Shown piece by piece: positions 12,317-44,750 of a DNA stretch of 64,000 nucleotides; the first letter of the stretch is position 1, and each line of letters begins with the position of its first letter. The stretch covers positions 416,001 to 480,000 of the forward strand of contig CAVSSM010000001.1 in assembly GCA_963730605.1 (NCBI GenBank), given 5' to 3'. A program made the translations under genes and the position numbers. This DNA comes from an uncultured Chlamydiae bacterium. Lineage in GTDB: Bacteria > Chlamydiota > Chlamydiia > Chlamydiales > SM23-39. The notes below the pieces were generated by a model. It ran no database searches, was not told the DNA's origin, and saw nothing but the letters and a program-made list of their open reading frames with translations.

Positions 12317-12578
12317 TTTTTGCCGATGACCGGACTCCCCCTGAGCTGACGTGCGAGACGATCGTCCCGTCATTTCGGGCTCCGGTTCGCAGCGGCCACC
12401 CCAATGACGATGCGTCGTTGAGGACCCCGGCCAAAGCTGCTCATTTCGAGTCCTCTCAGAGCCAATACTCTCGAGGCCCCCTTTCCGCAAGGAAAGGAGC
12501 GAGCCAAAGTATTGGCTCGCGTGGGGCTGAAAGATGGAGAGCTCCGCTCGTAATATGGCTCCGAGTCACCGGCAAAAA
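12317..12578. other. tRNA-Leu-3'-end-bounded fold-back element, copy A
   Basis: Starts TTTTTGCCGATGACCGGACTC (17/18 match to the tRNA-Leu 3'-end core at 27103-27120), ends TCCGAGTCACCGGCAAAAA (imperfect inverted repeat); many internal hairpins. Confidence 0.8.
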
Positions 12579-12613
12579 CGAAAAAGGGGAAGCAAAGTGT
12601 CCCCCGTTTTTGG

Positions 12614-12661
12614 AGGCAATCGGACGTAATCAGGACTTTTTATTGGAGTAAGCTCAAAGAA
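12614..12661 (+). repeat. Conserved att-like box M1
   Basis: AGGCAATCGGACGTAATCAGGACTTTTTATTGGAGTAAGCTCAAAGAA; related copies at 22517, 24976, 44596. Confidence 0.8.
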
Positions 12662-12725
12662 TCACTTGCCGTTCTGTGGCAAAATCAATGATTTTGCTAT
12701 ACTTTTGAAAAAAGAGAGGCTTTTT

Positions 12726-12965
12726 ATGAGTCCGACAGTTTTCAAGGAAGGGCCTTTTCGATTCTTCTTTTTCTCCAGGGAAGAGCCTCGAATGCATGTG
12801 CATATTTCTTGTCCTGATGGAGAAGCCAAATTTTGGATAGAGCCTATTATTTCTTTAGCTACATATCGTGGTCTAAATAAGAAACAACTGAATCAAATGC
12901 AATTATTAGTGGAGAAACATATTGATGAAATCCTCAGCTCTTGGAAAAACCATTTTTCCAGTTGA
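12726..12965 (+). CDS. DUF4160-family protein (putative TA component)
   Basis: MSPTVFKEGPFRFFFFSREEPRMHVHI...EAKFWIEP pattern; overlaps the downstream DUF2442 gene. Confidence 0.8.
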   Translation: MSPTVFKEGPFRFFFFSREEPRMHVHISCPDGEAKFWIEPIISLATYRGLNKKQLNQMQLLVEKHIDEILSSWKNHFSS

Positions 12966-13182
12966 AATCAACATTACCCGGTTTGGTTTGTGGCTGTGTC
13001 TTAGTGACGAAGAATTCTTCTTGACCTACGAAGAATATCCATTCTTTAAGAATGCTACCATTCCAGATATCTATGATGTAGAGCTTCATCATGACACCCA
13101 TCTGCATTGGCCAACTCTTGATGTCGATCTTAATGTTGCTATCCTAAAAAATCCCCATCACTTTCCTTTGATCGCACACTAA
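12925..13182 (+). CDS. DUF2442-family protein (putative TA partner)
   Basis: FLTYEEYPFFKNAT...LHWPTLDVDL pattern; usual partner of DUF4160. Confidence 0.8.
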   Translation: MKSSALGKTIFPVEINITRFGLWLCLSDEEFFLTYEEYPFFKNATIPDIYDVELHHDTHLHWPTLDVDLNVAILKNPHHFPLIAH

Positions 13183-13234
13183 ATACCACCATCCTGCCGA
13201 ATCCATCAAGAGGTCAAAAAGCTACTTAAAACGT

Positions 13235-15049
13235 TCAACCTCGCCTTGCAGTTGAGCCAAAAAATATGCTAGGAAAGTAACTTCGGAATAAAGAGATGGC
13301 CTCTTTAATAAACAGTCCACAGAAATAGAGAATTGTTCCCGCTCCTATTACTATAAGTACTCGCACAAAAAAAGAGCTTTTTGTGAATATTGTCTGGTCA
13401 ATAGAACATTTATACATTCAGCTAGTACCTGACCACAAAAGTTTTCATGGGTAGAGCCTCTTCATTTTCACTCGCGCATCTGGGATAGCAAATCCCCAAA
13501 GGATCTTTGCCCGTCTAGCATTTCTATCTGATACATAAGCGGCCACCTCTCTACCGAGAACTTCTTTTGAGCCTATTCGCCTTTTGAGGCACTGACCGCC
13601 AAGAACAGAAATTTCAATCTCTGCCATGTTCAACCAACTTGCATGTTTTGGCGTATGGCGCACCTCTAATTTCTTAATGATCCTCCTGGCTTCTTCGGGC
13701 TCAAACGTCTCGTAGAGATTAGCCAGTCGATGCGTATTCAAATTGTCCATGACAACCCTAATTTTTTCTGCCTCGGGAAAATGTTTGTCCACCAGATCCT
13801 TCATGCACTCGGCAAAATCTTTTTTTGTTCTCTGGTCTGTGACTTTTATTTCCCGCCAGCCTCCCAAGGGCTGTACAAAAACAAAGAGGTTGCTTGTTCC
13901 ATTCCTTTCGTACTCATAATCTCGGCGTTTGACTCTCCCTGGCACTGCGGCAATTGGCGCCAACACATCATCTACCAATTGGACTGGTGTTTCATCAAAA
14001 CACACAACGGGTTTCTTTTCGTTCAGCGGCTCCTCATATAAATCTAAAACATCTTCCATCCGACAAATATACTCGTAATCCACTTCTGGAACACACCAAC
14101 TCTTTACTTGCCATGGCTTTATTTCGTTTTTTTTAATGTTCTGCGAACCGTTTCGTCCGATATGGAATCTGTCAACTCTAGCGTAATGCAACGATCCGCA
14201 AGTAGCTGCATTGTCCAGCAGGCGCGTCCTTCGGGCGCCTCGCTGCAAGCAAGCGCGATTAAATGGGCTTTAGCCTTTCCAACCATCTTCTCCGGTCTTC
14301 CGGATCGCGCTTTTTCATTGAGTGATTGTTGTAGCCCGTGTTCACAGTAGGCTTTTCTTGTATTGTAAACGCTCACCTCGCTGCACCGTAGCAAAGAGGC
14401 AATCTCTTTATCTGGTTTCTTCTCATCAGCGAATAACAGAGTTTGCGCTCTTCTGATAATCCGCGCGGATGACTTCCCTTTTCTAACAATGTCCTCGAGT
14501 TCGCTGCGCACCTCAACTGTGAGATGAACGGACCATTTTTTGTTCATAGCTGCCTCCAAATGAAAGGCATATATGGAACACTATTCAAACATTTTTTTAA
14601 AAACTTTTGTGGTCAGGTACTAGCCCCTCATCATGCTTTATCATTCCATGGATCTTGCCAAAAAGTTCACCTGGATAAACATAGGATATCGCAATTTGTT
14701 CCCCTGGCGTTATTATCGGGAAAACGAGAGCCGATCCATCTTTTAGTTGTTTGGTTGCATACTCTATCGCTGGAAAAACTTGAAAAGTCTCGGGTAAGTG
14801 AAGATGTATGATTTGTACATTTTTTGCCTCCTTTTTTCCATCATTTCTCAATATGAGATTGCGAGTGGAAATAACTTCTCCATTCGTCATTTTAACGTGA
14901 CCTGGCAAAGTTGTATAGGCTATTATACGAGGATTCCTTTGCCATCTAATAGCAAGATATGCAGAAAGAATAACAGAGAGTATTACGATCATACTCTCAA
15001 TTAAAAGACGGGCATCTAACATATTTATTATAAAACTGGATGCTCTCAA
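13235..15049 (-). pseudogene. Membrane protein gene split by IS630 (5' part 14621-15049, 3' part 13235-13424)
   Basis: Removing the IS and one TA joins ...HDEGL to AECINVLLTRQY; the final TM segment needs one further slip in a T-run. Confidence 0.6.
13425..14620 (-). mobile_element. IS630-family IS (ORFs 14119..14547 and 13445..~14120, -1 frameshift)
   Basis: 21-bp TIR GTACCTGACCACAAAAGTTTT, TA duplication in CTAG context; FDETP, MDNLNTH, TPKHASWLNMAEIE. Confidence 0.95.
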
Positions 15050-15050
15050 T

Positions 15051-15152
15051 CGAATGACAGAACTTGGGATGCCGCAAAGTTACAAGGTGGTCGGTTAAAA
15101 TCAGGCGGCGATCAAGCAGCTAGCTGCTTGAAGGCAATTGCGCAACAAAGCC
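15051..15152 (+). pseudogene. IS903-group 3' remnant with right end
   Basis: Reads RMTELGMPQSYKVVG* then TTGCGCAACAAAGCC, an inverted match to the left end at 8478. Confidence 0.65.
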
Positions 15153-15572
15153 GATGCTCGATCGACAGTACCAAAATATTGATGTGAGTTTTACCCCATT
15201 TCCAGTTCGTCCGGTCTAACAGCAAAACGCACTGTTCACCCCATGTGAAGAATTTACAGGCGAGAATGACGATAAAGCTCATATCGAAGGAAAAACCGCC
15301 GAAAAATCGTTGAATTCTTCGATAGACGGACTCTTCCTTTGCCTGGGAGCAAAAGGCCTGGGCTATTTGGGTGAGATTTACGCTCCTGACAAGGAACAGG
15401 GCCTGTAGAATTTGGATCAGGAACGAAATTCGGGCTTTGTTCCAATCCAAGAAATGAATTAAAGTAGTCTCTAACTCGCTGATCTGTCTCATTATACCTC
15501 GCTGCTTAGTAACCAACGAGATATGGTGCCACTTCAGCGGGTTTCTTTCTTCAAATCATTTTTTGTCGTGTA
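15153..15572 (-). pseudogene. IS4-family 5' fragment (second subtype)
   Basis: Homologous to 345..1172 (LDWNKARI, SVYRRIQRFF, LDRTNWKWG); truncated by the IS903 end. Confidence 0.85.
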
Positions 15573-16803
15573 CTACAGCGTTTCATTAATTTTGACATAA
15601 TTTCTTGATAAAAAATATACTTGACGCCTTGTAAAATTCGTGGGAGTGCAGGTATGCGAAAGAAGTATAAAGTCAAGTTAACACCCAGTCAGCGCAAGCA
15701 ATTACTCGAAGTTGTGCATAAAGGAAAGCAGAAGGCAAAAACAATCACTCATGCTCGAATACTATTGCAGGCAGATTCTGGTGAAGAGGGGCCGGGTTTG
15801 AGAGCAAAAGCTATTGCGGCAGGGTTGAATATTCACGAACGCTCTGTACATCGAGCAGAGAATCTTTCGCAAACGATGGACTGGAAGCTGCTTTGCACCG
15901 AAAAAAACATCGCCAATACAAACCAAGAAAACTCGATGGTGATCAAGAAGCCCATCTGGTTGCCATATGTTGCGGAGCCCCTCCGGAAGGGCGCAAAGAA
16001 TGGACCTTGAGATTGTTAAGCGAAAGACTGGTTCAGCTAGAAGTTATTGATTCTATTTCCAGAAGCACAGTCCATCGCACTTTAAAAAAAATGAACTTAA
16101 GCCCTGGCTAAAGAAAGAATGGTGTATTCCTCCTGAGGAAAACGCTGACTTTGTTTGCCGAATGGAAAATGTGTTAGGCCTCTATAAGTGCCCATACAAT
16201 CCAGAATATCCAATGATTTGCATGGATGAGTCGAGTAAGCAACACGAGGCAGGAAAGCTGGATAACATTCCAGCAAAACGAGGTAAGGTTGAACGCTTTG
16301 ATACAGGATATGAGCGCAATGGCGTGAGTAATATTCTGCTGAGTTTTGAGCCACTAACAGGGAAACGATACATTGATGTTTCGGAGAGAAGGACTCGATT
16401 GGATTGGGCCAAACATATACAGAAACTTGTAGAGGAGCATTATCCCAAGGCAAAAAAGATCCTCTTGGTCTGCGATAATTTAAATATCCATACAGGTGCT
16501 GCTCTTTATGAGCTTCTGCCGCCCAAAGAGGCGAAAAGGATCGTAGACCGTCTGGAATTTCGTTATACGCCGAAACACGGGAGCTGGTTAAACATGGCAG
16601 AAATCGAATTAAGCCACCTTTCCAGGCAATGTTTAAACCGACGCCTAAGAGACATAGTCGAGGTTAAAAAAGAAGTTGCCTCCTGGCTAGAGGGCAGAAA
16701 CAAGGATGCGCATGTTATAGACTGGCGCTTCACAGTTGAGGACGCAAGAATCAAGCTAAAAAAGCTTTATCCCACAATTGGCAAAATTAATGAAACGCTG
16801 TAG
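15573..16803 (+). mobile_element. IS630-family IS, second copy of 1229..2460 with an extra 1-bp deletion near 15855
   Basis: Same TIRs and TA duplication; near-identical sequence; first ORF broken. Confidence 0.95.
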
Positions 16804-16906
16804 TACAGAGGCGCGTTTTATGGATAATAGAATTTATTATAAATTAATGTACTTTAAATCATCAATTTGATACAATATTTATTATAAAATCATTATATGA
16901 TAAAAA

Positions 16907-18409
16907 ATGACTAGCAAGATTAACTCAACGCATTCATATTCATCCGCAGAGAACATATCTCTTGAGGACCGTTATGCGGATTTAATTTTCCAAGACTTTA
17001 GTGTTTGGAAAAAATGTGATTTCCAAGATTATACCCGGTGCCAAAACGAATGGCCGCCCCAAAATATTAAACCCCACCTTGATCAATCAACGCCCGGGGC
17101 GATAGTTGCAACGGGTACAGAGCGGGGATTTTTCGATCTCCTTTTTTCTGATGAAGGGCTTTGCATAGGGTTGATTTCTCGAGACATTAATCCCCGTGCG
17201 AAGGCCTATATTGATTTCAATGTTCTATTGCTGCGTATCTCTCAAAATATGCAAGAATATACAGAGCTATCGGACCCCATTCCTTGGTCTTCAAATGACT
17301 ATGATGCCATTATGTCCAAGCGCATCGCCGTGATTACTGAAAAAACTCAAATGAGTGATCTACCACAGCGGGTTAAAAACTATTACCTGAAACACATCAA
17401 GACATTGGGAAGTGCTTATCTCCACCTTGGGACACATGGAGATTGGAGAAAAGAGAACCGCCTCAGTGCGTGCTGGTATCATCAAGATGAAGAGCAGTTT
17501 TTAAAGCTCCAACGATATGCCAGGGCCGGGAATATCATTGCTACTGTTGGTGATATCAACGACCTTAGGTTTTTGAAAGAGACAAAAATCAATATTGTTG
17601 ATACATCCAACATCCATGAGTATTGCGTTGTCAATTTACAAGGAGAAGGAGACTTCTCTCCCCGGGTGATTTGGACAGAATTATCTCTTGGAGACACACG
17701 GTATCATTCGTCCCCCCATACCCCCTATAAGCCTTTAAATACAGAGGAAGAGAAGGAATTCCAAATGTGGATTACACTATTCCAGCAAGTCCATTGCGAC
17801 ATAATAAGTGACAAGAAAAAACATTATTTTCAGATTGTGAATGAAAAATTAAAATTAGAGGCATCCGCTCCGTGCAATAACCCTAAAGAAGTCCTTCATA
17901 AACTGCGAAAATATATGCAAGAAAGTATTCTTACCGACCCCAACAAGCGAATTCTTAACGATCCAACTCTAGGATATATCTGTTTAAGTAATCTGAGTGA
18001 AATTAACAAATTAAGTCCTGAACAGATGAGCATTCTCTGCCGCAATCCACAAATTCGGCAGCATCTTCCCTTTTTACTTGGAGAAATTCGTAGCTTAAAA
18101 CCTGAACACTATATCGCCCTCATGAAAATCGAGGGAGCAAAAGAAGAATTCGAAAAACAATGCCTTCAACTCAACATCAACTTCGTTCATTTAGATTACT
18201 TCGGAGCTAGTCAGCGTGCTATATTGACTCAAGAATTGGGCCCTGCAAGATTGGCAAAACTCAAACTACGTGTCGCTCTGTCACGTCTTGCGCAATCCAT
18301 CCAAAGAAGATTGCCCTCCCCTGTCCAGGTCGCCATCATAGTTGGAGGACTTGCTACTCTAGGAGGTTACTGGGCGCTGCGCGGGGCAGATTTTACTCCT
18401 TCTGAGTAA
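16907..18409 (+). CDS. Hypothetical protein; possible SAM-binding-type N-terminal domain and C-terminal TM anchor
   Basis: 500-aa AT-rich ORF; GAIVATGTERG, ISRDINP, VGDINDL, DTSNIHEY; hydrophobic tail VAIIVGGLATLGGYWAL. Confidence 0.7.
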   Translation: MTSKINSTHSYSSAENISLEDRYADLIFQDFSVWKKCDFQDYTRCQNEWPPQNIKPHLDQSTPGAIVATGTERGFFDLLFSDEGLCIGLISRDINPRAKAYIDFNVLLLRISQNMQEYTELSDPIPWSSNDYDAIMSKRIAVITEKTQMSDLPQRVKNYYLKHIKTLGSAYLHLGTHGDWRKENRLSACWYHQDEEQFLKLQRYARAGNIIATVGDINDLRFLKETKINIVDTSNIHEYCVVNLQGEGDFSPRVIWTELSLGDTRYHSSPHTPYKPLNTEEEKEFQMWITLFQQVHCDIISDKKKHYFQIVNEKLKLEASAPCNNPKEVLHKLRKYMQESILTDPNKRILNDPTLGYICLSNLSEINKLSPEQMSILCRNPQIRQHLPFLLGEIRSLKPEHYIALMKIEGAKEEFEKQCLQLNINFVHLDYFGASQRAILTQELGPARLAKLKLRVALSRLAQSIQRRLPSPVQVAIIVGGLATLGGYWALRGADFTPSE

Positions 18410-18728
18410 CTATATTAATTTAATTTGAGCTTAAGCAGCTTTCGATCCAGCCCCCCCCGAACCTAGCCCACAGCTCTCTTAACGCATCCTGAGCCGAATC
18501 TAGGCCATTGTTGGCGATTCCATTAGAGAGGAGGCGCTGGAAGCGGACGATCTTTTTTATAGTGAAAACAGGCAGTAAAACTCATCCGTTTTCTGGTTTG
18601 CCGGCTTGGAAAGCCAGACACGGCATACTGGCTCTTAGTTTTCGCGCGGATCGACATAAATTGTTTGAGTGCCCAAGCTTTCAATAATTTTTATGATCTT
18701 TTTGATGTGTCAACAATAAGGTGATATG

Positions 18729-19643
18729 GAGCCTATCTCCTACTCATTAACCTAATCCAAACAAAACACATTCTCTCACCCAGTAAAGTAATACGCCGAG
18801 CATCAAAAAACCTTCCCAATATCTCATTCTTCTTTCCCATCGCACAACCAATCGTCGGTATTTTCGTTGTAACCACGAGATTCCTCGCTCCACTTTCCAT
18901 CGGTGGTTTTCTAGGACTTTCGTTTGTTGTTCCGCGTTGTCCCGTCCCATTCTTCAGTGAGAGATATACGGAAATAACTTCATCGCCAAAATTTGCAACC
19001 GCAATTCTTCCGCATCATACCCCTTATCTGCTTCCACGATCGGTGTTATTCCGCGTGCTACGAGAGGCTTTAGCCACCCGCTGATTTTTTTTTATCAGGG
19101 GAATCACCTCCTTTCGTTCATCACCGGCAGCCCCCGTACTTGTGGTCCTAAGAGGTTGACCTAAACCGTCGACAAGCAGGTGAGTGGTAACGCCTTTTCC
19201 TTTGTAACCATGGTCTACTTTTTCTCCGCCTCCCTTCCCAGCAGAAAAAAAACCATCAATTGCCAATCGGGTTAAATCGATCATTTTCCACTCCAGACAA
19301 ACTTCCTGCAATGCAGCGAGTACGCGCTCTAGAATTCCATTCTCTTTCCACAATCCCAGATATCGATGTGCACAAGATTTCGACGCCCATTGTTCACCGG
19401 TCGGCACGTCGCACCAACGCGCTCCGGTTGTCAGCACCCAAATCAAGGTATTGAGAACTTTTCTTGGATGCATTGGTTGCGTTCCGCTTACTGCTATTCC
19501 CCACGGATAAGGAATCAACGGCTCTATAACAGCCCATTCATGATCGTTAAGTCCTACGAACTTGCCCATCGATACAACTCCTTTAAAATCAGGGCAAATA
19601 CGGTATCACATAAAGAATTTATTTAACAAGGAGGGATAGGCTC
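18729..19643 (-). mobile_element. IS5-family element with inactivated transposase
   Basis: TIR GAGCCTATC/GATAGGCTC; TGARWCDVP, AIDG, ADKGYD, RWKVERGISWL; frameshift at the 9-base run near 19085-19093 and an in-frame TGA near 18955. Confidence 0.85.
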
Positions 19644-19665
19644 ATATTTTTAAGAGCCTGTTTCC

Positions 19666-20031
19666 CTAATCTCCAAAACTGCGCGCATGTTCAAATGCAT
19701 AATCGATAACTGGTTCTAGATTTTCGAGTACTTCATTGGAATTTTCTCCTCGTTTCAAAGCGTTCTCAGCTTCGCGAAGCGCTTTTAAAAGAAGATTGAA
19801 TTCTTGATCTATCTTCGAGCTATCATCTGGCTGATGAGGGCGATAGATTATTGGCGCTGGTTTGGGCTTCTCTTTGATGAACAGGCTTGCTATGGCTAAA
19901 ACTCCCAATCCAAGTCCTAACCAAGATCCAACCCCCCACGAAGTATCAACAGGCCTACGATCCCATATGTTGATATTTTCATTCACTGTTCCGCTTACAT
20001 GGATATCCTCACGGATAGTCAAATAATCCAT
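19666..20031 (-). CDS. Small single-TM hypothetical protein
   Basis: RBS-like AGAGGG before ATG, one TM helix then a helical tail. Confidence 0.6.
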   Translation of the reverse strand: MDYLTIREDIHVSGTVNENINIWDRRPVDTSWGVGSWLGLGLGVLAIASLFIKEKPKPAPIIYRPHQPDDSSKIDQEFNLLLKALREAENALKRGENSNEVLENLEPVIDYAFEHARSFGD

Positions 20032-20154
20032 TTTCCCTCTATTTTCATTGGACTGATTCGTTTCGTGGACGAAATCATAGACCAGCGAAAGATTTCCGTC
20101 TTGTACGAATTAGTTTTTTAATGTATAACTTAGTTCAAGTAGGATGGTTTTGGA

Positions 20155-20358
20155 ATGGAAATTTTGACCACGAAAGAAGTGTGCGCCCTGCTCAAGACTA
20201 AGCGTCTGTCCCTCTATAAACTTGTGAAGTCAGGCGAGATCCCGGCATTTCGCATGGGGCGCTCTTGGAAGTATGAGCGGACGGCGATCGAGGCCTGGAT
20301 CCGGAAGAAGATGCAACAAAACAATAAAGCAATAAAACAAGTCGTTCCACGTGGCTAA
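20155..20358 (+). CDS. Excisionase-like HTH (HTH_17/AlpA-like) DNA-binding protein
   Basis: ILTTKEVCALLK...LYKLVKSGEIPAFRMGRSWK. Confidence 0.88.
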   Translation: MEILTTKEVCALLKTKRLSLYKLVKSGEIPAFRMGRSWKYERTAIEAWIRKKMQQNNKAIKQVVPRG

Positions 20359-21472
20359 GAAGAAGTCGATAGCTGTATCACATGATGTCGTTGATCGCGA
20401 CAGCTACATCAAGGTCTTTGACCAGCTAAAGTCTGACATCAGGCAAACACAGCTGAGAACGGCCCTTTCGATAACGAAAGAGGTGGTTCTTTTGTATTGG
20501 CGAGCCGGGAAGGTTCTCTCAGAGAAAGTCCATAAGGAAGGGTGGGGATCAAAAACCATGGAGCGCTTAGCTATAGATCTAAAAAGCGAGTTCCCAGATG
20601 TTGGCGGATTCTCTCTAAGGAATCTTCACTACATGCGCAAATTTGCTAAAAGCTACCAGGACGTCAATTATGCAGCAGCTGCTGCACAAATTCCCTGGGG
20701 ACACAATATCCTGCTCTTGGACAGGCTTGATGATCCAGTCAAGCGTCTGTGGTACATCCAGCAAGCGATCGAGAACGGATGGAGTCGCAGCGAGCTAGAA
20801 GCTTGGATTGATTCAAATCTGTATGGACGAAAGGGGAAAGCCATCACCAATTTCAAAAAGACGCTCCCTTCTCCTCAATCTGAACTAGCCGAACAGGTTG
20901 TGAAAGATCCCTATAATTTCGACTTTATAACGCTGGCTACCGCCTACAAAGAGAAAGAGCTGGAACAGGGGATCATGGACCATCTTCAGAATTTTTTGGT
21001 GGAGTTAGGGGATGGGTTTGCCTTTCTTGGAAGACAGTACTGCATAGAAGTGGAAGGTGAGGATCATAAGCTCGATCTCTTGTTTTATCACGTGAAATTG
21101 CGCTGCTACATCGTAGTTGAGCTAAAGGCTACGGCATTCGATCCAAGAGACGCTGGCCAGATGAACTTTTATCTTTCTGCTGTCGATGATCTCCTCAAGC
21201 ATCCAGATGATCAGCCATCGATCGGGATTCTGCTTTGCAAGACGAAAAACAAAGTAAAAGTTGAATACGCCCTCCGAGACATCCACAAGCCGATGGGCGT
21301 CGCTGCATATGAAACTAAAATCGTTTCTTCCTTGCCCAAGAAGTTGAAGGGGACCTTACCTACAATTGAAGAGATCGAGGCCGAACTGTCTGCGGTAAAA
21401 ACGCTAGAGACGCGAGCTTCGGTTCGCAGAAAGCCATCAAAGAAGAAACGGCGCAGGAACCAACCTCAATAA
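20351..21472 (+). CDS. yhcG: YhcG/DUF1016 PD-(D/E)XK nuclease-domain protein
   Basis: GFSLRNLHYMRKFA, IPWGHN, KDPYNFDF, DLLFYHVKLRCYIVVELK, GQMNFYL. Confidence 0.92.
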   Translation: MAKKKSIAVSHDVVDRDSYIKVFDQLKSDIRQTQLRTALSITKEVVLLYWRAGKVLSEKVHKEGWGSKTMERLAIDLKSEFPDVGGFSLRNLHYMRKFAKSYQDVNYAAAAAQIPWGHNILLLDRLDDPVKRLWYIQQAIENGWSRSELEAWIDSNLYGRKGKAITNFKKTLPSPQSELAEQVVKDPYNFDFITLATAYKEKELEQGIMDHLQNFLVELGDGFAFLGRQYCIEVEGEDHKLDLLFYHVKLRCYIVVELKATAFDPRDAGQMNFYLSAVDDLLKHPDDQPSIGILLCKTKNKVKVEYALRDIHKPMGVAAYETKIVSSLPKKLKGTLPTIEEIEAELSAVKTLETRASVRRKPSKKKRRRNQPQ

Positions 21473-21717
21473 ACGCCTCTATTTTCGACGACCGCGCCTC
21501 GATCCATATCAAGTAGCCATCTCTCTGTTTTTTGAATTTGAGCCTCTCTTTGAGCCGTAAGGCACGACCGCTTCATCGGCTTCTTTAAGAATTAGATCTG
21601 CTCGACCTCGCCAAACGGCCTTAGAATCGATTATCTCAGGTCGCGACATATCAAGTAGCCATTAGGTTAGTCGATCGATTTTTTGGGCTTGCAATTCGTT
21701 AAGAGAAAAGCGCCCCG

Positions 21718-21870
21718 TTAGGAGAGGCGCTCGATTTGTTTGTTTTTCAGATAGCTGTCGATACCAGCAACGATTCCACAAATAGCACACAGGCCAAATA
21801 CAACCGCTACATTAGGTGCGGTAATAGTTGGAAATACTTTGTATGGTGTGAATTGTTCTACGAGAGTCAT
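21718..21870 (-). CDS. 50-aa single-TM small protein (not in ORF track)
   Basis: Own translation MTLVEQFTPYKVFPTITAPNVAVVFGLCAICGIVAGIDSYLKNKQIERLS*; GGGGGA immediately upstream. Confidence 0.45.
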   Translation of the reverse strand: MTLVEQFTPYKVFPTITAPNVAVVFGLCAICGIVAGIDSYLKNKQIERLS

Positions 21871-21991
21871 TCCCCCAATTTCTTAGAGCAGGATGTTTTT
21901 CAAGAAATAAGACTATCCTGTTGTCTTCAAAAACATCTTGCTTTTTTACGCTAACGGAATTAACTAAGCTCATAAGAATCACCGTGTTAAT

Positions 21992-22450
21992 TTAGGAAAC
22001 TCCGGATACCTTTGCCGCTGCACAACAAGTCATGCAACCAGCATATCCTGCCGGAGTTAACAAGAAAGCAGTGCAAGTAGCCTGAGCCGCTGCAGCTTTA
22101 GCATCGGCAGCTGCTCCAGTTTGGTCATTAGTAAAAAATTTAATTCCCGCTGTGAGTAGATTAGTCGCGGCCCGCCCACCCCCTGCAATGGGATTGCTGC
22201 AAATAGTAGGACAATCAAAAGCTATCCCTAGAGCTGGTCCAACCACTTTTCCCAATACCTCTACAGACAGTTTTCCATTTTCCATCACTTCTTTTGTCTT
22301 GGTTTTGACAATTTCCGCTCCTTGTTCGCACGTCTCTACGCAGACCCTTTCTGGAGCGTCATCTTTCCCACCGGGAAGAGGTTCGCAAGCCATTTGGCAG
22401 ACCTGTTTAGTTCCTGGATCTCTTGCTTGTGCCACTGGCAAATTCGACAT
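21992..22450 (-). CDS. Cys/Ala/Gly-rich hypothetical protein with four CxxxC motifs
   Basis: CQMAC, CVETC, CPTIC, CMTCC in a 152-aa ORF. Confidence 0.65.
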   Translation of the reverse strand: MSNLPVAQARDPGTKQVCQMACEPLPGGKDDAPERVCVETCEQGAEIVKTKTKEVMENGKLSVEVLGKVVGPALGIAFDCPTICSNPIAGGGRAATNLLTAGIKFFTNDQTGAAADAKAAAAQATCTAFLLTPAGYAGCMTCCAAAKVSGVS

Positions 22451-22469
22451 GGCGTTTTCGGTATAGAAC

Positions 22470-22509
22470 CAGGTGGTTGCACGCTATGAATTTATTTTTT
22501 GTCCAGTAC
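22470..22509 (+). mobile_element. Isolated IS4 terminus
   Basis: CAGGTGGTTGCACGCTATGAATTTATTTTTTGTCC is the reverse complement of ~110-143. Confidence 0.8.
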
Positions 22510-22516
22510 GACAAAG

Positions 22517-22564
22517 GGCAATCGGACGCTTTTAGAACTTTTGATTGGAAAAAATTTAAATGAA
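22517..22564 (+). repeat. Conserved att-like box M2
   Basis: GGCAATCGGACGCTTTTAGAACTTTTGATTGGAAAAA. Confidence 0.7.
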
Positions 22565-22664
22565 AAATTTATAACCATGCCGAAATTGTATTAACTATTT
22601 TAATCGTTTAAATAAAACACAATTAATGATATCGTGCAGATTAAATAAAAAAAGGAGCAGATAT

Positions 22665-23639
22665 ATGCAAGCAATTGAAATGAATATTGTACACAACGAT
22701 CTTATCTCTGATACGAGCTCTGATCAGCGCATTGCAGAACCATTGATTGCTACAGAAGCTGGCACATACTCTAAAGCCTCCGCAAGAAGAATAAGAATCG
22801 AATCTCAATCAGCACAATCGAGAATCGAAGATCAAATTGCTTGTGGTGGAGATCTCCCTCTCAATAAGGAAAATGCAAAGCGACGATTGCAGTACTTAGA
22901 TCAAATAATCGCAAAATCTTTTGGCGAATATTCCAATGCTTTAGTATTCATATACACATACGAAAAATTAGCCCTTCATATTTACTTGGGAAATACAGCT
23001 GAAGCAGTAGCTTGTTTATCAAAGCTGCAGGAACTAGAGAACGTCCAACCTTGTTCTGACGATGAGGACGACGTATTTATAGAAGGAAAAACTGCGCATG
23101 CTTTATTAGGTTGGGCAGCAGGCGATGGTACAGCTGAAGTAATGGACCTCGCAACATTCCCTGATCCGGTAACCCTTTTATTGTTAAAAGCAAAAGGCAT
23201 TCCGCTCCCTGAACCATACTTTTCTGTTGATGACTCTTTTACTGGCAACAAAGAAATCGATGAAAAACTTTTTTCTCGCAATTACCAAGAAGCACTCACA
23301 CTCTTAGACAAACAGCTAAAGGGCAACAAACTATTTGTGCTAGATCGAGAGATCTTCTTGCAAGCACGGGGTTTGTGTAAAGCAATATTGGACGATTATG
23401 AAGGAGCGCTTCAAGATTATAATGAAATTATAGATTCTCATCCATCTTTTAATATCCAAGAACTCCCATTAATTCGTGGCTTGATTCATTTCTTAAATAA
23501 CGATCCGGAAAAAGCTCGAATCGATATCTGGCCTCCTCTCAAAGAAGAAATGACACTACACGATTATTTTTGGAAAAAATTTAACCAGATCAATGATAAT
23601 TTGTCAGGATTCGCGATCGTAAAAATTCTCGATCTCTAG
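22665..23639 (+). CDS. TPR-like repeat protein
   Basis: [32 protein letters not shown] and [18 protein letters not shown] are TPR-like. Confidence 0.7.
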
Positions 23640-23644
23640 CAGTT

Positions 23645-24801
23645 GTGCTTCATTCCAGATCGAATAGCTCCGACCTCCTGCGCTGGGATACGGGGGTCAT
23701 GTTTGCCCGGAGTTACGTCTTACAGCTGAGCGACAACATCAAGCGAAGCAAGGAACAGGCGGCTAAGTCGGGAGCTTGGATCGGGCAGGCCCCGATTGGT
23801 TACAAACATTCGGTTGATGAGAAGGGCGGCAAAACGATCGTCCTCGATCCCGAAAGAGCCCCTCTCATCCGCAAACTCTTTGATCTCTATGCAACAGGTA
23901 AAACTATTCCCTTCTCGCCCTTAAAGAAGAAGCGGAAAAAATGGGGTTGAGAACGAAAAGAGGACAGAAGGTAGCGAAGTCCCAGATCGATGACATTCTC
24001 AAAAATTCCTTTTACTGCGGCACGATGGAAAGCAAATATGGGACCATCCAACATCGCTATGAGGCTCTCATCTCCCCTTCTCTTTTTCATCAAGTTCAGA
24101 ATGTAACCGCGGGATTCCATAAGAAGCCTTTTAAAGCGCTTAACGAACCCTTTGTCCTTCGAGGTATGGTCACTTGCGCCCATTGCGGCTGTTTGATCAC
24201 TCCCGAGATTAAGAAAAAAAGATACCTGTATTACAGCTGTACCAATGCGAAAGGGAACTGCAACCGGATCTATGTTAGGGAAGAGCCACTGGTCGATTCT
24301 TTGTCATCGTATTTTGACCAAATAGCTTTAAGCCAATCTCAGATCGATGAGGTAACGGGGTATTTGAAAGAGATCCATGACACCGAGAATCGATTCCACA
24401 AAGAGTGTATGGATAACCTCCGAAGAGAACAGGAAAAAATTCAAAAACGTCTCAGCCAGATGTACGATGACAAGCTGGACGGGCTGATCGACGAAGCCAT
24501 GTATCTCGACAAGATCCGGACTTACAAGGCTCGCCAGGCCGAAATCTTGGAAGAGATGGGGCGCCACCACGATGCTGATGAGAACTTCTACGTGACGGCC
24601 AACATGGTGATGAACCTGGCTGCTCGCTCCCGAGAAATCTTCCTGAGTTCTGAAGTGACCGAAAAACGCCAAATTTTAAATTTGGTATTTCAGAACTTGC
24701 AATTGAATGATCAGAAAAACCTGATTCTCGAGGTAAAAGAGCCGTTTTTAACCATGATAGGGATCAAAAACGGCACCATTCGTCCGATTGATTGCCGGTG
24801 A
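23645..24801 (+). pseudogene. Large serine recombinase lacking the catalytic N-terminus, frameshifted near 23905
   Basis: [28 protein letters not shown], zinc ribbon CAHCG...YYSC...C, coiled coil; stop codon lies inside the tRNA-Leu repeat. Confidence 0.9.
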
Positions 24802-24937
24802 CCGGACTCACCCTCGGCGGGCGAGCGAAGCGCTCGCCCCGTCATCTCGGGCTCCGATTCGGTCGCCATCGAGACGCCGGTCGCCCTCATTTCTCGTCCT
24901 AAAAACGATCCCCCGGACCGTTTTTTCACCGGCAAAA
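24792..24937. other. tRNA-Leu-3'-end-bounded fold-back element, copy B (includes a perfect 18-bp att core 24792-24809)
   Basis: TTGCCGGTGACCGGACTC identical to 27103-27120; inverted TCACCGGCAA at 24926-24935; perfect 9-bp hairpin 24819-24839. Confidence 0.85.
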
Positions 24938-24975
24938 TTGGGCCGATGGACTAACAGGACAATAACTTCAATTTT

Positions 24976-25025
24976 GCAGGCAATCGGACGTAATCAGAAC
25001 TTTCGACTAGAAAAAGCTCAAAGAA
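24976..25025 (+). repeat. Conserved att-like box M3
   Basis: GCAGGCAATCGGACGTAATCAGAACTTTCGACTAGAAAAAGCTCAAAGAA. Confidence 0.8.
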
Positions 25026-25241
25026 AAGCTTACAATTTTTTTATACAACACACGAACCTATCCTCCAATTCTTAATGATTCATTTATGGTCGATTTTGAG
25101 GCGATTTTTCGTCGTCGACCGCCCGAAGTAAATATCGGGACGGTGATCTTTACGAGGGCGGAGGCGCGAAAAGCGCCCAAAAGCGTGCCGTAAAGGGATC
25201 GTGAAGAATTGGAGGATAGGTTCACCTGTAATATCAAGTAT

Positions 25242-26135
25242 ATGCCTATGGATCAAGCCGATGAGTCGATCTTAGTTCCCTCTTCTCCCTCTTTTGAATC
25301 TCTCAAAAAGCATAACCAGCATGGCATGGAATATTGGAGCGCGCGAGATCTTCAGCCTTGCCTCGGGTATTCTCAGTGGCGTCGTTTTGAAAATGCGATC
25401 AAAAAAGCTATGGAATCTTGTAAACAGTCAGGAAACAACCCCGATGATCACTTTGCCGGCGCCGGCAAACCGATCCCTGGCGGCAAAGGATCGTCTCAAG
25501 TAGTTGATGATTACCATCTTTCGCGCTTTGCCTGCTATCTCATCGCTCAAAATGGAGATCCCAGAAAACCAGAAATCGCCCAAGCCCAAAAATACTTCGC
25601 GATTCAGACCCGCCGCCAGGAAATCTCCGATCAAATGGCTGCCGATATGGAACGGGTTGAGATGAGAAATCAAGCATCAGCGGAGTTTAAAGCTTTGTCT
25701 GGGGCCGCTCGAGAGGCTGGCGTTCAAAACGCTATGTTTGGCATCTTCCATGACGCTGGCTACAAGGGGCTTTATGGTGGATTGGGAGTTGATGCAATCA
25801 AATCTCGCAAAGGGATTGCCCAAAAAGAACAACTCATGGATCGAATGGATACGACCGAATTGGCTGCCAATCAGTTTCGAATGACACAAACGCGAGAAAA
25901 GTTAAAACGGGAAAATATCAAAAATCAAAGAGATGCGATAGAAACTCATGAAATGATAGGTAAAGGGGTGCGTACCCTAATCGAAGAATTTGGCGGCACT
26001 CCTCCTGAACATATTCCTCCAGCTGAGTCCATCAAAAAAATTGAGAAACGATTGAAAGCTACCCAACCTCGATTAACCCTCGATCCTAAAGATACACTAG
26101 GCGTCCAGGATCATTCAGAGATCAGCGAAGAATAA
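25242..26135 (+). CDS. dinD: DNA-damage-inducible protein D (BRO-N-like)
   Basis: EYWSARDLQPCLGYSQWRRF, YHLSRFACYLIAQNGDPRKPEIAQAQKYFAIQTRRQE, ELAANQFRMTQ. Confidence 0.92.
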   Translation: MPMDQADESILVPSSPSFESLKKHNQHGMEYWSARDLQPCLGYSQWRRFENAIKKAMESCKQSGNNPDDHFAGAGKPIPGGKGSSQVVDDYHLSRFACYLIAQNGDPRKPEIAQAQKYFAIQTRRQEISDQMAADMERVEMRNQASAEFKALSGAAREAGVQNAMFGIFHDAGYKGLYGGLGVDAIKSRKGIAQKEQLMDRMDTTELAANQFRMTQTREKLKRENIKNQRDAIETHEMIGKGVRTLIEEFGGTPPEHIPPAESIKKIEKRLKATQPRLTLDPKDTLGVQDHSEISEE

Positions 26136-26174
26136 TTTTGGCTCGGGGAAAACCAATGAATGTGAGACACATTA

Positions 26175-26678
26175 TTAGTGGTCTTCACTCGAATTTATAA
26201 GATCCTTTTTCTTGATGTAAAAGTTAGTTTTTGAGCCACCGCTGTCGTTTAATGTATAAATTCCAAAGTTTTTACAGGCATTCAAACCAATAATTGTATT
26301 TGGAATGATCCTGATTTCGTAGAAATTTCCACAAGAATTCTTCTTATTTATTTCTGCAAATTCTGAATCAGTGGCTACTACTTTGATTGCAGCATTTGAG
26401 TCTAGAGATGTCAATATGTCAGGATTGACGGATTTTAGGAAGGCATCGAGGTCGTTTTTGAGGGTCCTATTTAGTTCCTCGTTTCGGCCCTTGCCAAGGT
26501 TGCATAGAACGCAAAGGGTTTGAAGATTTGATAAGTCGTTTATGCCTCCTTTTGCAACAGGAATGATGTGGTCAACGTGCAATTCGACGCCAGATTTGCC
26601 GCAAATTTTACACGTATAAAGATCTCTCTTCCATACCTCCAGCCGCTTTTTTGGTCCTATGTATTCTCTTTTGCCCAT
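26175..26678 (-). CDS. HNH endonuclease
   Basis: RDLYTCKICG, LHVDHIIPVAKGG, NLQTLCVLCNLGKG. Confidence 0.92.
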   Translation of the reverse strand: MGKREYIGPKKRLEVWKRDLYTCKICGKSGVELHVDHIIPVAKGGINDLSNLQTLCVLCNLGKGRNEELNRTLKNDLDAFLKSVNPDILTSLDSNAAIKVVATDSEFAEINKKNSCGNFYEIRIIPNTIIGLNACKNFGIYTLNDSGGSKTNFYIKKKDLINSSEDH

Positions 26679-26728
26679 TCTTCAATATGATTTATATATG
26701 CTAAGAAAGCAAAAAAAGCGCCTTCTTT

Positions 26729-27072
26729 TTTTTGCTGGTGACCGGGCTCCTTTCGCGCGGGCACACGAAACGTGTGTCCCGTCTGGCGAAAGCCGCTTCC
26801 CATACCAACGATGATGCATCGTTCCCGGGCGACGGCGGTGATCCTCAATTTACTTCGACTTGGATCAGGGGAAGGGGCTTCGCCTCGCTCCCTTCCCCTA
26901 GCCCCTTTCCCCGCACGCGTGTACTTCGTCACGCGTGGGACGCCCTCGTGCACGGGCTTCGCCTGTTGCTGCCGGGCCGGCGATCCTCCCCGGTTTTGCC
27001 AAGGGCAAAACATCGGAGAGGATTCGAGTCCAGTACGGAAGCCGCACTGGCGGCTTCCTCACTCGGCAAAAA
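26729..27072. other. tRNA-Leu-3'-end-bounded fold-back element, copy C
   Basis: TTGCTGGTGACCGGGCTC (16/18 to core) ... TCACTCGGCAAAAA; at least seven internal hairpins. Confidence 0.85.
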
Positions 27073-27074
27073 TG

Positions 27075-27103
27075 AAAAAGCCCCGCTAAAGCGGGGCTAT
27101 TTT
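27075..27103. terminator. Bidirectional intrinsic terminator after tRNA-Leu
   Basis: AAAAAGCCCCGC-TAAA-GCGGGGCTATTTT. Confidence 0.8.
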
Positions 27104-27186
27104 TGCCGGTGACCGGACTCGAACCAGCACTCAATTGCTTGAAGTAGATTTTGAGTCTACCGCGGCTACCATTACGCCACACCGGC
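27104..27186 (-). tRNA. tRNA-Leu(CAA)
   Basis: Acceptor GCCGGTG/CACCGGC, anticodon arm GTAGA-CTCAAAA-TCTAC, long variable arm, GGTTCGAGTCC; no encoded CCA. Confidence 0.97.
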
Positions 27187-27242
27187 TTGAAAATAAAGCG
27201 CTCATGATAGTCCAGATAGCCCTTTTATAGAAAGAAGTCTCA

Positions 27243-27418
27243 GAGACTGTACACAAACTCAGGTGGCAACAAGTGGCTGAGCGAGACAAAGTCAGATCGA
27301 AGGAGCGAAGCTCCAGTTCGAGCGAGGAAGACATTCTTGAATACGAAGGATTCCGAGCGAGAATCGATATGGCAAAGTCGCAGCCAGCCAATTGTCACCC
27401 GAGTTTGTGTACAGTCTC
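27243..27418. mobile_element. MITE / palindromic element
   Basis: TIR GAGACTGTACACAAACTC/GAGTTTGTGTACAGTCTC, TCA on both flanks, no transposase. Confidence 0.85.
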
Positions 27419-27452
27419 TCAAGTCTCCGACAATAAAAGGTTTCAAAGAAAT

Positions 27453-32383: not shown

Positions 32384-33694
32384 TTATTTCGGTATATTTT
32401 TAGCAAGTCCTACTATTATCACAGGAAGGACAACAGCCCAAATGGTAGCTCCACCAGCGATTACCTTAACGGTTGTCAGTAGTCCATCGAATGTGGCAAA
32501 GCTTAATCTAAACATGGCGCCATATGCTGCTAACCACTGATCAGGAGGCGCTGGTTTAGACAACCCACCGACGCATTTGGCAGAGCGCCATACGGTGGCA
32601 ATCCGATCAAACAAACCGCCTAAACCGCCAAATACAGCTAAAAAGGTTTTCGGATTTTGCTCTACTACGTTCCCTATTGGGTTATTGCCTAAAGAACGGC
32701 CGATGAATCTTCCAAACTCGGACGATTGCTGCTCAATGAATGACACGGCACTGCTTCCGAACTGCAGGGCGGCATGCTCTGAAACGGTGTCGACTTCATC
32801 ATTGAGCGCATCGGTCAAGCTAGTCTGGTCAACATATGACTTACCTAAAGATGTAAAATTCCACTTGGCCAATCTATACCGCTCGTGATTGAAAAATCGG
32901 TTTTGGTGCGACGCCCCACCCCAAAAATGATGCGTTTTTGGGGACCCCGGCGGCAGCGGCTTTGACTCAGATTTTTCATCTTCGCTTCCGAGGCAATTCG
33001 CTGCGCTCGTCTGCTCTGCACTGCGAAGGTCCACTGGACCTTTTCGTGTTTCCGCAGCCTTGCCTTTGGCAAGGTCGATTTCATCAACGGGCTGGGCTGT
33101 CATTTTCGTTGGAACACTCGTAGGAGTATCTATCGACGTTGAGGGCGGAGAACCGATTAAGCCCTGGTTATCAATAAAGCTAGAGGTATTACCCCAACAT
33201 GGACCCTCTTGGTCTCCAGACCCTACCAGCGGTTCTAGTCTTTGCTGTGGCTGTTGTGGCTGCTGCAGTTGTTGCATTTGCGTGCCGCGGGTCAGTGCGG
33301 AAAAGAAATTGCCAAATTTAAAGCCGAGAGCTACTGCGAATGCACCGGCAGTGAGGGCTGTATAAAAAAACGGCGTGACCCATAAAGGGATGCCCTTCGC
33401 TTTTGAAAAAAGAGCGTTGACTCTAGCTGTCAACCCCTCTAAATCGTTTTTGTGAGCCTGATGTGCGCGATAAAGTGTTCGAGTGAGTTCTGCCTTGCCG
33501 ATTGCGATGCTGTCTTTATTTAACGCTTCCATGAGGATACGGAGTTTGGCCGCAGTCTGATTCAAGTCGACTCTTTCTCCCCCTTCCGCCTTAGCGATGT
33601 CGGCTTGGATAAGAGCAGCTAGCTGCGCTCTCTCCGCATAGCTTTCTGGTGTTAAAGCAAATCCTTTAATTGCTTTTTGGATGGATGATGACAT
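32384..33694 (-). CDS. Putative membrane effector, paralog 1 (contains an in-frame MITE)
   Basis: Shared N-domain SYAERAQ...[10 protein letters not shown]...AHQAHK, TM helix, hydrophobic C-terminus. Confidence 0.75.
   Translation of the reverse strand: MSSSIQKAIKGFALTPESYAERAQLAALIQADIAKAEGGERVDLNQTAAKLRILMEALNKDSIAIGKAELTRTLYRAHQAHKNDLEGLTARVNALFSKAKGIPLWVTPFFYTALTAGAFAVALGFKFGNFFSALTRGTQMQQLQQPQQPQQRLEPLVGSGDQEGPCWGNTSSFIDNQGLIGSPPSTSIDTPTSVPTKMTAQPVDEIDLAKGKAAETRKGPVDLRSAEQTSAANCLGSEDEKSESKPLPPGSPKTHHFWGGASHQNRFFNHERYRLAKWNFTSLGKSYVDQTSLTDALNDEVDTVSEHAALQFGSSAVSFIEQQSSEFGRFIGRSLGNNPIGNVVEQNPKTFLAVFGGLGGLFDRIATVWRSAKCVGGLSKPAPPDQWLAAYGAMFRLSFATFDGLLTTVKVIAGGATIWAVVLPVIIVGLAKNIPK
32875..33095. 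mobile_element. IS630-type MITE inserted in frame
   Basis: Left end TATACCGCTCGTGATTGAAAA matches the IS at 10831/41954; imperfect inverted end CGATTTCATCAACGGGCTGG; internal hairpins; related relic at 59897-59950. Confidence 0.8.
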
Positions 33695-44595: not shown

Positions 44596-44750
44596 GCAGG
44601 CAATCGGAGGTAATTAGAACATTTGATTGGAGTAAGAGGGTTTCTACTACGAAGAATATCCATTCTTTAAGGTTGTTTCGGTATAAAACTGCTCAACCTC
44701 GCCTTGCAGTGAGCCAAAAAACATGCTAGGAAGGTAACTTCGGAATAAAA
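44596..44750 (+). repeat. Collapsed cassette relic: box M4 plus fragments matching ~13024-13050 and 13235-13291
   Basis: GCAGGCAATCGGAGGTAATTAGAACATTTGATTGGAGTAAG; CTACGAAGAATATCCATTCTTTAAG; TCAACCTCGCCTTGCAGT...CTTCGGAATAAA. Confidence 0.85.

Follow-up and report, generated by a model that had tools for sequence, protein, structure and literature searches.

Structured, mobile-looking units at chlamydial tRNA 3' ends, probable distant relatives of the tRNA-linked repeats of Escherichia coli

Introduction

The closest described counterparts of the sequences reported here are the tRNA-linked repeats (TLRs) of Escherichia coli, a set of 22 repeats at ten loci that is defined by an 18-19-bp direct repeat and includes the 178-bp repeats of tyrT/tyrV, RtT, the lys-operon repeats and rrA, rrB and rrF (PMC8144298). 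The passages of that paper that deal with these repeats, in which Egan and Landy (1978) and Rudd (1999) are cited, give them no known function save for the rr RNAs, describe the direct repeat alone and mention there neither an inverted copy nor mobility (PMC8144298). A preprint, as far as its text bears on the subject, reports merely raised coverage of the tyrT region (bioRxiv 2024.07.17.603846), and the current version of PMC10542128 holds nothing relevant to tRNA-linked repeats. The literature covered, which takes in few of the older subscription papers, gives no account of a host-matched mirror copy, of the junction or of chlamydial members.

Integrative elements that target tRNA genes insert in the gene, restore its 3' end, leave a displaced copy and accrete in tandem. 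The attP site of CTX phage and the attC sites of integrons are acted on by tyrosine recombinases as single strands in folded form. Elements of the IS200/IS605 group are not known to duplicate their target. One of them, IS608, is described as picking its target by base pairing and as retargetable to 12/17-nt sites (PMC5934647).

Here we describe a family of tRNA-linked units that we met in a window of 64,000 nucleotides from the genome of an uncultured Chlamydiae bacterium, where an earlier note had marked three fold-back copies, A, B and C, built on the 3' end of tRNA-Leu.

Results

The three folded copies are real. Their coordinates and sequences were confirmed (Table 1), and each folds as RNA better than all of its shuffles on both strands, with plus/minus z-scores of -8.0/-7.6 for C (0 of 100 shuffles folding as well), -5.4/-6.0 for A (0/200) and -2.7/-4.2 for B (0/200). 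With up to three mismatches allowed, the 18-nt core has only six matches in the 2.2-Mb genome, four of them at the window locus. The inverted T-loop piece TTCGAGTCC is present at 12445 in A and 27023 in C. B is a full unit, matched by the covariance model over its full length (35 bits), because it holds a recurrent variant of the T-loop copy, TTCTCGTCC, at 24891-24899 together with the standard third hairpin. C is a composite of a left module, whose extension is common to C2:134856, and a complete right module at 26928-27125 (100 bits) that is 74% identical to tRNA-Tyr units on contig C2.

Several details of the earlier description need amendment. The first hairpin is followed by CCGTC in A, B and C alike, and the spacer between core and hairpin, given as exactly 10 nt in all three, is 9 nt in B and C. 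The bulge ascribed to the closing stems of A and C is absent from A, which has an A.C mismatch on the plus strand. The second stems of A and C, put forward as a covarying pair, do not represent covariation of the family, because the stem of A lies in a genome-wide REP-like repeat (136 genome matches at up to five mismatches) and that of C is similar. This palindromic repeat also occurs at window positions 32919-32948 and in places forms tandem runs with a period of 36-51 nt. No Rfam family reached its gathering score within the window, and the stretch 24700-27300 gave merely sub-threshold terminator-like matches, so that the comparison with Rfam leaves A, B and C without a match. The ORFs across A and C have no Pfam match, and a coding role for them was rejected on this ground.

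Table 1. Coordinates of the units, islands and host gene in the window
Feature	Position	Strand	Evidence and remarks
Element A	12317..12611	+	Folding; model 15.8 bits; lacks an adjoining tRNA after island insertion
A, distal direct copy (core, antisense tRNA-Leu(CAA) 3' end)	12320-12337	+	Identity 17/18; then first hairpin
A, REP-like module inside second hairpin	12399-12428	+	Repeat search
A, T-loop copy	12445-12453	+	Then expanded third-hairpin region, acceptor copy to 12578
A, inverted acceptor copy	12566-12577		
A, apex hairpin	12579-12611	+	Compared with unit L121
Distal arm (attR-like) of serine-recombinase island	12609..12661	+	Repeat D1; unsplit form in L207
Degenerate second distal arm, nested island	22510..22563	+	63% identity
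Large serine recombinase pseudogene, two frames	23645..24801	+	Pfam Recombinase and Zn_ribbon_recom
Element B	24792..24975	+	Model 35.1 bits, full length
B, core (antisense tRNA-Leu(CAA) 3' end)	24792-24809		Identity 18/18
B, first hairpin	24819-24839	+	Stem analysis
B, third hairpin	24901-24925	+	Stem analysis
B, inverted acceptor copy	24926-24937		
B, apex	to 24975	+	Stem analysis
Second island	24972..26731	.	Distal arm 24972-25025; Bro-N protein 25209-26135 (+); HNH protein 26175-26678 (-)
Element C, left module	26729..26927	+	Model 11.4 bits; direct copy, first hairpin 26759-26779, REP-like stem, left-extension hairpins
C, core (antisense tRNA-Leu(CAA) 3' end)	26732-26749		Identity 16/18
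Element C, complete right module	26928..27102	+	Model 100.5 bits; junction at 26941
C right, second hairpin	26983-27023	+	Stem analysis
C right, T-loop copy	27023-27031	+	Stem analysis
C right, third hairpin	27037-27058	+	Stem analysis
C right, acceptor copy	27059-27073	+	Stem analysis; inverted acceptor copy 27059-27071
C right, bidirectional terminator-like apex	27075-27102	+	Stem analysis
tRNA-Leu(CAA), host gene adjoining C	27104..27186	-	tRNA prediction; T arm and acceptor strand pair with the inverted copy of C

The assembly (2.2 Mb, 83% complete) contains 39 tRNAs, and the 3' side of each was inspected alongside searches with the copies. At tRNA-Tyr (contig C2) three exact 184-bp tandem units lie behind a 3'-half copy, and there are two partial units in addition; three exact 137-bp units are found at tRNA-Ser(GGA), further units stand behind tRNA-Ser(GCT) and tRNA-Met(CAT), and one orphan lies at C2:134885; 34 of the 39 tRNAs have no unit. 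A covariance model built from 16 chlamydia-type units gave 11 strong and 4 weak matches on this genome. A decayed unit-like remnant, a tRNA-Leu-like core with a T-loop copy and no adjoining tRNA, was also seen at C2:102652-102715, and ARAGORN found no tmRNA gene in the 83%-complete assembly.

The family is not specific to tRNA-Leu, as had been supposed: it stands behind four further tRNAs of this genome, and the 93 pattern matches that have a T arm within 140 nt (42 others were dropped) represent 27 tRNA types and tmRNA as hosts. The expected association with tRNA 3' ends elsewhere was borne out, an antisense tRNA gene lying within 700 nt of 98 of 135 distinct matches (16 of the 135 end 150 nt or less from the edge of their locus). 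Since the search pattern demanded TTCRARTCC, the conservation of those fixed bases is no evidence. In its strict form the pattern matched 14 of 401 genomes of the phylum (control matches, 0), at least 120 metagenome stretches and 100 stretches in a collection of species genomes, where the 80 matches listed belong mostly to Patescibacteria and chlamydiae; an identical 25-base motif occurs in both groups, and viral contigs gave no pattern matches. With 25 candidates scored per genome, so that the counts are lower bounds drawn from related and incomplete genomes, the covariance model detects the element in at least 53 of 103 genomes of the family and at least 25 of 151 genomes of the phylum (f9, 13/22; family f4, 0/27). 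None of 196 units bears an ORF, and their earlier description as gene-less is supported.

Read on the tRNA-antisense strand, a unit of about 140-200 bp begins with a direct copy of the last ~18 bases of the gene, which ends in the T loop after GGAY. Next come the first hairpin, the CGGG..CC linker and the second hairpin, whose bulged stem is conserved, and then a mirror copy, TTCRARTCC, with 2-4 host bases. A third hairpin set between AC and T follows (AC before it in 40 of 74 units, T after it in 57/74), then the mirror copy of the acceptor strand, an apex ranging from a 3-nt loop to a bidirectional terminator-like hairpin, and the gene's own end. The mirror copy is usually split in this way by a conserved hairpin, and in the tRNA-Met unit it is perfect and unsplit. 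In the consensus fold the mirror copy pairs with the tRNA-side gene end to form a three-way junction with a conserved 2-nt bulge, in place of the first-to-last fold described before; A and B fold first-to-last probably because islands inserted between each of them and the tRNA have left them without a tRNA-side partner.

Both sides change in 23 of the 38 consensus pairs, a figure reached by none of 500 shuffles, and 93% of cells pair in the consensus stems as against 38-58% in slid controls. Relatedness can inflate such covariation tests. In helices 2 and 4 the covariation comes from differences between the hosts; in helix 3, which stems from the element itself, eight of the nine pairs show double changes. 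The proposal that these are selected structures, and not decayed att scars, is sustained by these counts. The variable second stem comprises 224 Watson-Crick, 3 G.T and 6 A.C pairs, and the loops are mostly AAA/AAG, TGCT, GCAG and ATTG, seldom GNRA or UUCG; nearly pure Watson-Crick stems with triloops and non-GNRA tetraloops fit DNA better than structured RNA. A preference for the plus strand, also proposed, was not recovered in anchored stem counts, in the z-scores, which are alike on both strands, or in an alignment-free stem count that is greedy and noisy (G.T 37 vs A.C 55, p 0.08). There is a slight lean to the tRNA-sense strand, with cGNAg triloops numbering 10 vs 0 and DNA energy lower in 13 of 19. 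T.G pairs are seen in the stem between copy and host, where C-to-T bias can produce them.

Of 87 representatives, 47 have a distal copy no more than 110 nt away (within 130 nt in 83 of 196 units, 64 others having short flanks), and its identity to the gene ends inside the T loop, extending four bases past GGAY in only one of the 47. The nested units L334 and L391 repeat this junction with just ~5 host bases. The insertion point is fixed in the T loop, after the antisense GGAY and beside tRNA positions 58/59. Empty and filled sites beside serine-recombinase islands show insertion at tRNA genes, as first suggested: at tRNA-Ser(TGA) the recombinase end abuts the gene in L190, L191 and L192, and a displaced core plus element is present in L188 and L290; at tRNA-Leu(CAA) the site is empty in L199 and filled in window copy B, L121, L212 and L214. 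The displaced old gene end retains its genomic flank. Insertion, as these comparisons show, displaces the old 18-nt gene end with its flank and leaves the gene with an intact end.

The inverted copy matches the gene at which the unit now stands. In 89 of 93 units both of its variable T-loop bases agree with those of the host (shuffle mean 26, maximum 44), and 61/93 agree at the two positions that follow (shuffle mean 10). Once near-duplicates had been removed, leaving 87 units of which 74 have a third hairpin, the acceptor copy matched the host in at least six of eight bases in 48/74 (shuffle mean 6, maximum 16) and in fewer in 26/74. At position 57 the mirror copy equals the host in all 40 units with a body of standard length, and in the six units where the distal copy differs from the host at this position the mirror copy follows the host each time. 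It also holds T-loop bases that are absent from the distal direct copy. In the tRNA-Tyr units on C2 (L015) the inverted copy mismatches the host T stem and the direct copies are exact, and a TTCTC variant (B, L174, L265) disrupts pairing at positions 57-58. Overall, the comparison shows that the units carry an inverted copy of the T loop, T stem and acceptor strand of their current host.

Bodies were compared in 45 units parsed from about 127 loci, 38 of them with a host. For 28 of the 38 the nearest body sits at a different tRNA type; for 10 it shares the tRNA (shuffle mean 3), and for 12 the genus (shuffle mean 5). Bodies are shown by this comparison to move between tRNA types, with some lineage inertia, nearest bodies from the same tRNA and from the same genus both being above chance. 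A different element outside the A/B/C family, at C7:76600-76780, has long terminal inverted repeats and is inserted into a tRNA-Asn fragment, within its T loop and apparently at TA.

The window holds an accretion array at one tRNA, arranged as A, serine-recombinase island, B, second island, C. The 54-nt repeat behind A and B is found in 11 of 103 related genomes. In L207 this repeat and the end of the recombinase are fused directly, at a 10-bp inverted repeat with TTGC in its centre, which makes the repeat the distal arm of islands whose crossover lies at the extreme 3' end of tRNA-Leu(CAA). The recombinase pseudogene has no catalytic-domain match in Pfam, and comparison with L199 and L207 identifies its end as the proximal island arm, which continues into core B; the second island has no recombinase left. 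In the simplest order, A would have inserted, the island 12612-24795, with its nested arm at 22510, would have landed between the gene end and the apex of A, B would then have inserted, the second island (24972-26731) would have landed, and C would have inserted last. Alternatively for B, an element circle integrated into the recombinase's own site would give the identical sequence.

The gene of the serine recombinase at tRNA-Leu(CAA) extends across the enzyme's own attachment site (24781-24801 with 24972-25025; L207, L199, L212, L214): the protein of the unsplit form is ~30 residues longer, and that of the integrated form either has a C terminus encoded by the antisense tRNA end or stops at that point, which may be a switch that depends on integration. 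The distal arm has a fourth copy at window 44596-44640, ~150 nt behind tRNA-Arg(TCG), with no recombinase match nearby. At L191 (C2:145.3-147.1 kb) a large serine recombinase has a 601-codon open frame that ends in tRNA-Ser(TGA), and its last codons contain a sense copy of the T-loop motif. Other mobile DNA in the window includes a MITE-like element with 49-nt inverted arms at 27221-27440, just upstream of tRNA-Leu, with similar elements behind tRNA-Arg(TCT) on C1 and tRNA-Leu(CAG) on C9, and IS630-like and IS5-like elements at 10893-11936, 13421-14624, 15569-16807 and 18729-19644, which in contigs of four related runs show higher depth and other flanks, as multi-copy active elements do. A near-perfect inverted duplication of a MITE, a distal arm and the start of a Bro-N gene at C10:9300-10900 is possibly an assembly artefact or a fold-back rearrangement.

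A search for a partner enzyme gave no candidate that tracks the element. Y1 transposases were counted by hand in 22 of 53 positive and 18 of 50 negative genomes, and the sole Y1 match of this genome is marginal (E 3e-5), its locus looking like a decayed IS605-type remnant. Serine recombinases, also counted by hand, occur in 12/53 vs 8/50 genomes, and the adjacent recombinase, once proposed as the partner, has a different crossover. There is no IS110 transposase in this 83%-complete genome, its only GIY-YIG match lies within a 608-aa frame, and it has 12 tyrosine-recombinase matches, the repeats of its tyrosine integrases extending to the anticodon loop. Three equally scoring reverse transcriptase genes with 445-codon frames (C1:286945, C4:461, C8:30230) probably represent a single group II intron in several copies. 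Of 176 ORFs extracted beside the units, 107 were tested; none of these is a recombinase, and many are housekeeping genes; together with the islands' having att arms of their own, this speaks against the suggestion that the units delimit cargo. Four low-depth contig sets with patchy cover showed, among the matches listed, no joint across A, B or C of the kind that a circle or an empty allele would give, a result that weighs neither for nor against excision.

Discussion

The chlamydial units are probably distant relatives of the E. coli TLRs and probably work alike, to judge from the tyrT, lys and rrnB sequences with which we compared them. Both lie downstream of a stable-RNA gene (in the window, C adjoins tRNA-Leu, and A and B have been displaced by islands), both have at one end a copy of the gene's 3' end, 18-19 bp in E. 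coli and matched over 17/18, 18/18 and 16/18 bases in A, B and C, both break in the T loop, after GGAY in the chlamydial units and GGAT in E. coli, and both form tandem arrays. The E. coli body, hairpin-CCCT-CGGGCC-hairpin (CGGGCC or CGGGTC), shares by inspection a CGGGCC-type motif found in 25 of 38 chlamydial bodies. The E. coli repeats also have TTC..TCC or a shortened T-loop copy, the tRNA cases with a short host-matched mirror copy, and the T-loop motif is present in rrB even behind 5S rRNA. They differ in that the chlamydial mirror copy is longer and split by a hairpin, a form not seen in the E. coli units compared. In a 4-kb E. coli search the covariance model gave weak scores, 12.7 bits for rttR and 10.1 for the lysQ repeat, partly from the tRNA arm, and on the whole E. 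coli chromosome it had no matches, the likeness in sequence being too slight for such a scan or for Rfam.

Other known systems share parts of this architecture. Derivatives of IS200/IS605 and REP/TnpA-REP sequences are likewise described as gene-less imperfect hairpins with conserved bulges (PMC6006769), whereas the chlamydial target is a duplicated 18-nt gene end, the putative guide is 15-20 nt long and split by a hairpin, and no GTAG-type foot was identified in the units. An assignment to IS200/IS605 derivatives or REPINs was rejected since there is no cognate Y1 association and an 18-nt gene end is duplicated, as element end or as target copy. Like attP and attC, the units have two inverted site copies that form a duplex, with extruded hairpins and extrahelical bases; they have the conserved 2-nt bulge and three-way junction, but no strand preference, and their target is the tRNA T arm and not dif or attI, with a site sequence that depends on the host. 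Membership of the integron attC/CTX attP class was set aside, there being no linked integrase in 107 neighbouring ORFs and no dif-like target. Gene-end restoration, a displaced copy and tandem accretion are shared with tRNA-targeting integrative elements, from which the units differ in that they lack an integrase and cargo, hold a mirror copy of their target and have a crossover region unlike that of either integrase class in this genome. A classical MITE was rejected because the inverted segments are host-specific, not family-specific, and the sites are tRNA/tmRNA ends, and the att arms of the adjacent islands were rejected because those arms join at TTGC and the element junctions lie in the T loop.

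We hypothesize that A, B and C are non-autonomous mobile DNA that is handled in single-stranded, folded form, its mirror copy selecting the target, a reading to which we give slightly less than an even chance because no partner was found. An enzyme acting in trans, perhaps one of the HUH/Y1 type or a tyrosine recombinase that carries out a single strand exchange, would cut and join the element while this is folded, single-stranded DNA. The inverted copy would fold the element end and base-pair with the target across the cut, insertion would be viable only where the element's own end restores the gene, and the three-way junction and bulged stem would be putative protein-binding sites. The closest working model would be element-target base pairing in the style of IS200/IS605, and the inverted copy holds the T-loop bases that the distal direct copy lacks and agrees with the host at position 57 (6 of 6), as a cut-spanning guide would. 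Patchy spread and exact tandem arrays (3 x 184 and 3 x 137 bp) speak for mobility; the lack of a strand asymmetry, which single-strand mechanisms often leave, speaks against this model, as do the lack of an ORF-bearing version among 196 units, the lack of co-occurrence with Y1 transposases or serine recombinases and the lineage inertia of the bodies; the poor acceptor copies (26/74), the Tyr T-stem mismatch and the TTCTC variant argue against a strict guide, and the rrB repeat, behind a 5S rRNA that lacks a T loop, also counts against the model. The earlier conception of tiny tRNA-targeting elements stands as far as gene-less, inserted and selected units are concerned, and a folded single strand remains our best guess for their mechanism.

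We consider it unlikely that the units are instead a host-selected RNA trailer, in which a read-through transcript would fold like a tRNA, with acceptor and T stems and the body in the T loop, and be processed, terminate or act as a small RNA, insertions being rare accidents. The E. coli repeats behind 5S rRNA are described as transcribed, processed and bound by Hfq and CsrA (PMC8144298), and rttR carries an RNA annotation; here many units give a bidirectional terminator-like apex, a new unit stands behind the tRNA after every island insertion, and the inverted and direct copies on the tRNA-sense strand are able to form acceptor and T stems. However, the T-loop segment is antisense and no T-loop mimic, the inverted copy tracks the intact gene and not the distal copy, the stems are nearly without G.U pairs and RNA tetraloops, a terminator usually separates the gene from the remainder of the unit, and 34 of 39 tRNAs here and about half of the related genomes do without. 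The position of the T-loop junction, the same in chlamydiae, CPR and E. coli, also makes it quite improbable that no enzyme is involved and that replication template switching at the tRNA end makes direct-inverted-direct duplications and captures hairpin modules from MITEs or REPs, strand switching then keeping the palindromes matched. A direct-inverted-direct layout is typical for tandem inversion duplications. That process would suit this layout in the units, the modules common to dispersed repeats (the REP-like piece of A; L037), the near-perfect stems on both strands and the perfect unsplit mirror copy of the tRNA-Met unit, but not the conserved hairpin that interrupts the mirror copy midway and has fixed flanks (AC 40/74, T 57/74), or homologous bodies at 27 tRNA types in two phyla.

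Reverse transcription of an element RNA with a tRNA-like end, with template switching onto tRNA or gene tailoring the copies, would account for re-tailoring that needs no mutation beforehand; three identical reverse transcriptase genes are present in the genome, and the direct copy is about 18 nt long. Among the units inspected, however, neither copy has a non-genomic CCA, the rrB repeat contains bases past the mature 5S end, the distal copy keeps the old genomic flank and the stems are DNA-like, and we regard retro-insertion as very unlikely. Equally hard to credit is that the units are att arms or hitch-hikers of serine-recombinase or tyrosine-integrase islands. B does lie exactly between both arms of a serine recombinase site, as do the units of L212 and L214, and a unit or apex stands in front of several of the 16 distal-arm loci examined, so that the recombinase could excise the unit as a circle. 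Against this, the serine recombinase has its crossover at the extreme 3' end (TTGC) and the repeats of the tyrosine integrases extend as far as the anticodon loop, whereas the units join within the T loop; the layout is accounted for by sequential insertion, none of the 107 neighbouring ORFs is a recombinase, and there is no co-occurrence.

The folded, target-selecting mobile DNA that we favour may extend beyond chlamydiae. It is possible, if doubtful, that these units, the E. coli TLRs and similar CPR elements form one overlooked superfamily of natural DNA-guided insertion elements, with a folded strand, a 15-20-nt mirror guide that finds a tRNA T arm, a probably widespread enzyme that cuts and joins in the T loop, and retargeting by change of the guide. 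The units are real, selected and mobile-looking, and the E. coli TLRs anticipate their architecture. Those repeats have been known since 1978, and in the passages concerned a 2021 paper still gives them no function (PMC8144298); for testing them the chlamydial family supplies sites with and without the insert, a junction at one fixed point of the T loop, mirror copies that match their hosts across 27 tRNA types, and covariation. Units of this kind are easily mistaken for tRNA fragments or for the att sites of islands. Should the mirror copy prove to be a guide, they would form an insertion system that is natural and programmable, recognizes long targets and relies on an enzyme yet to be discovered.
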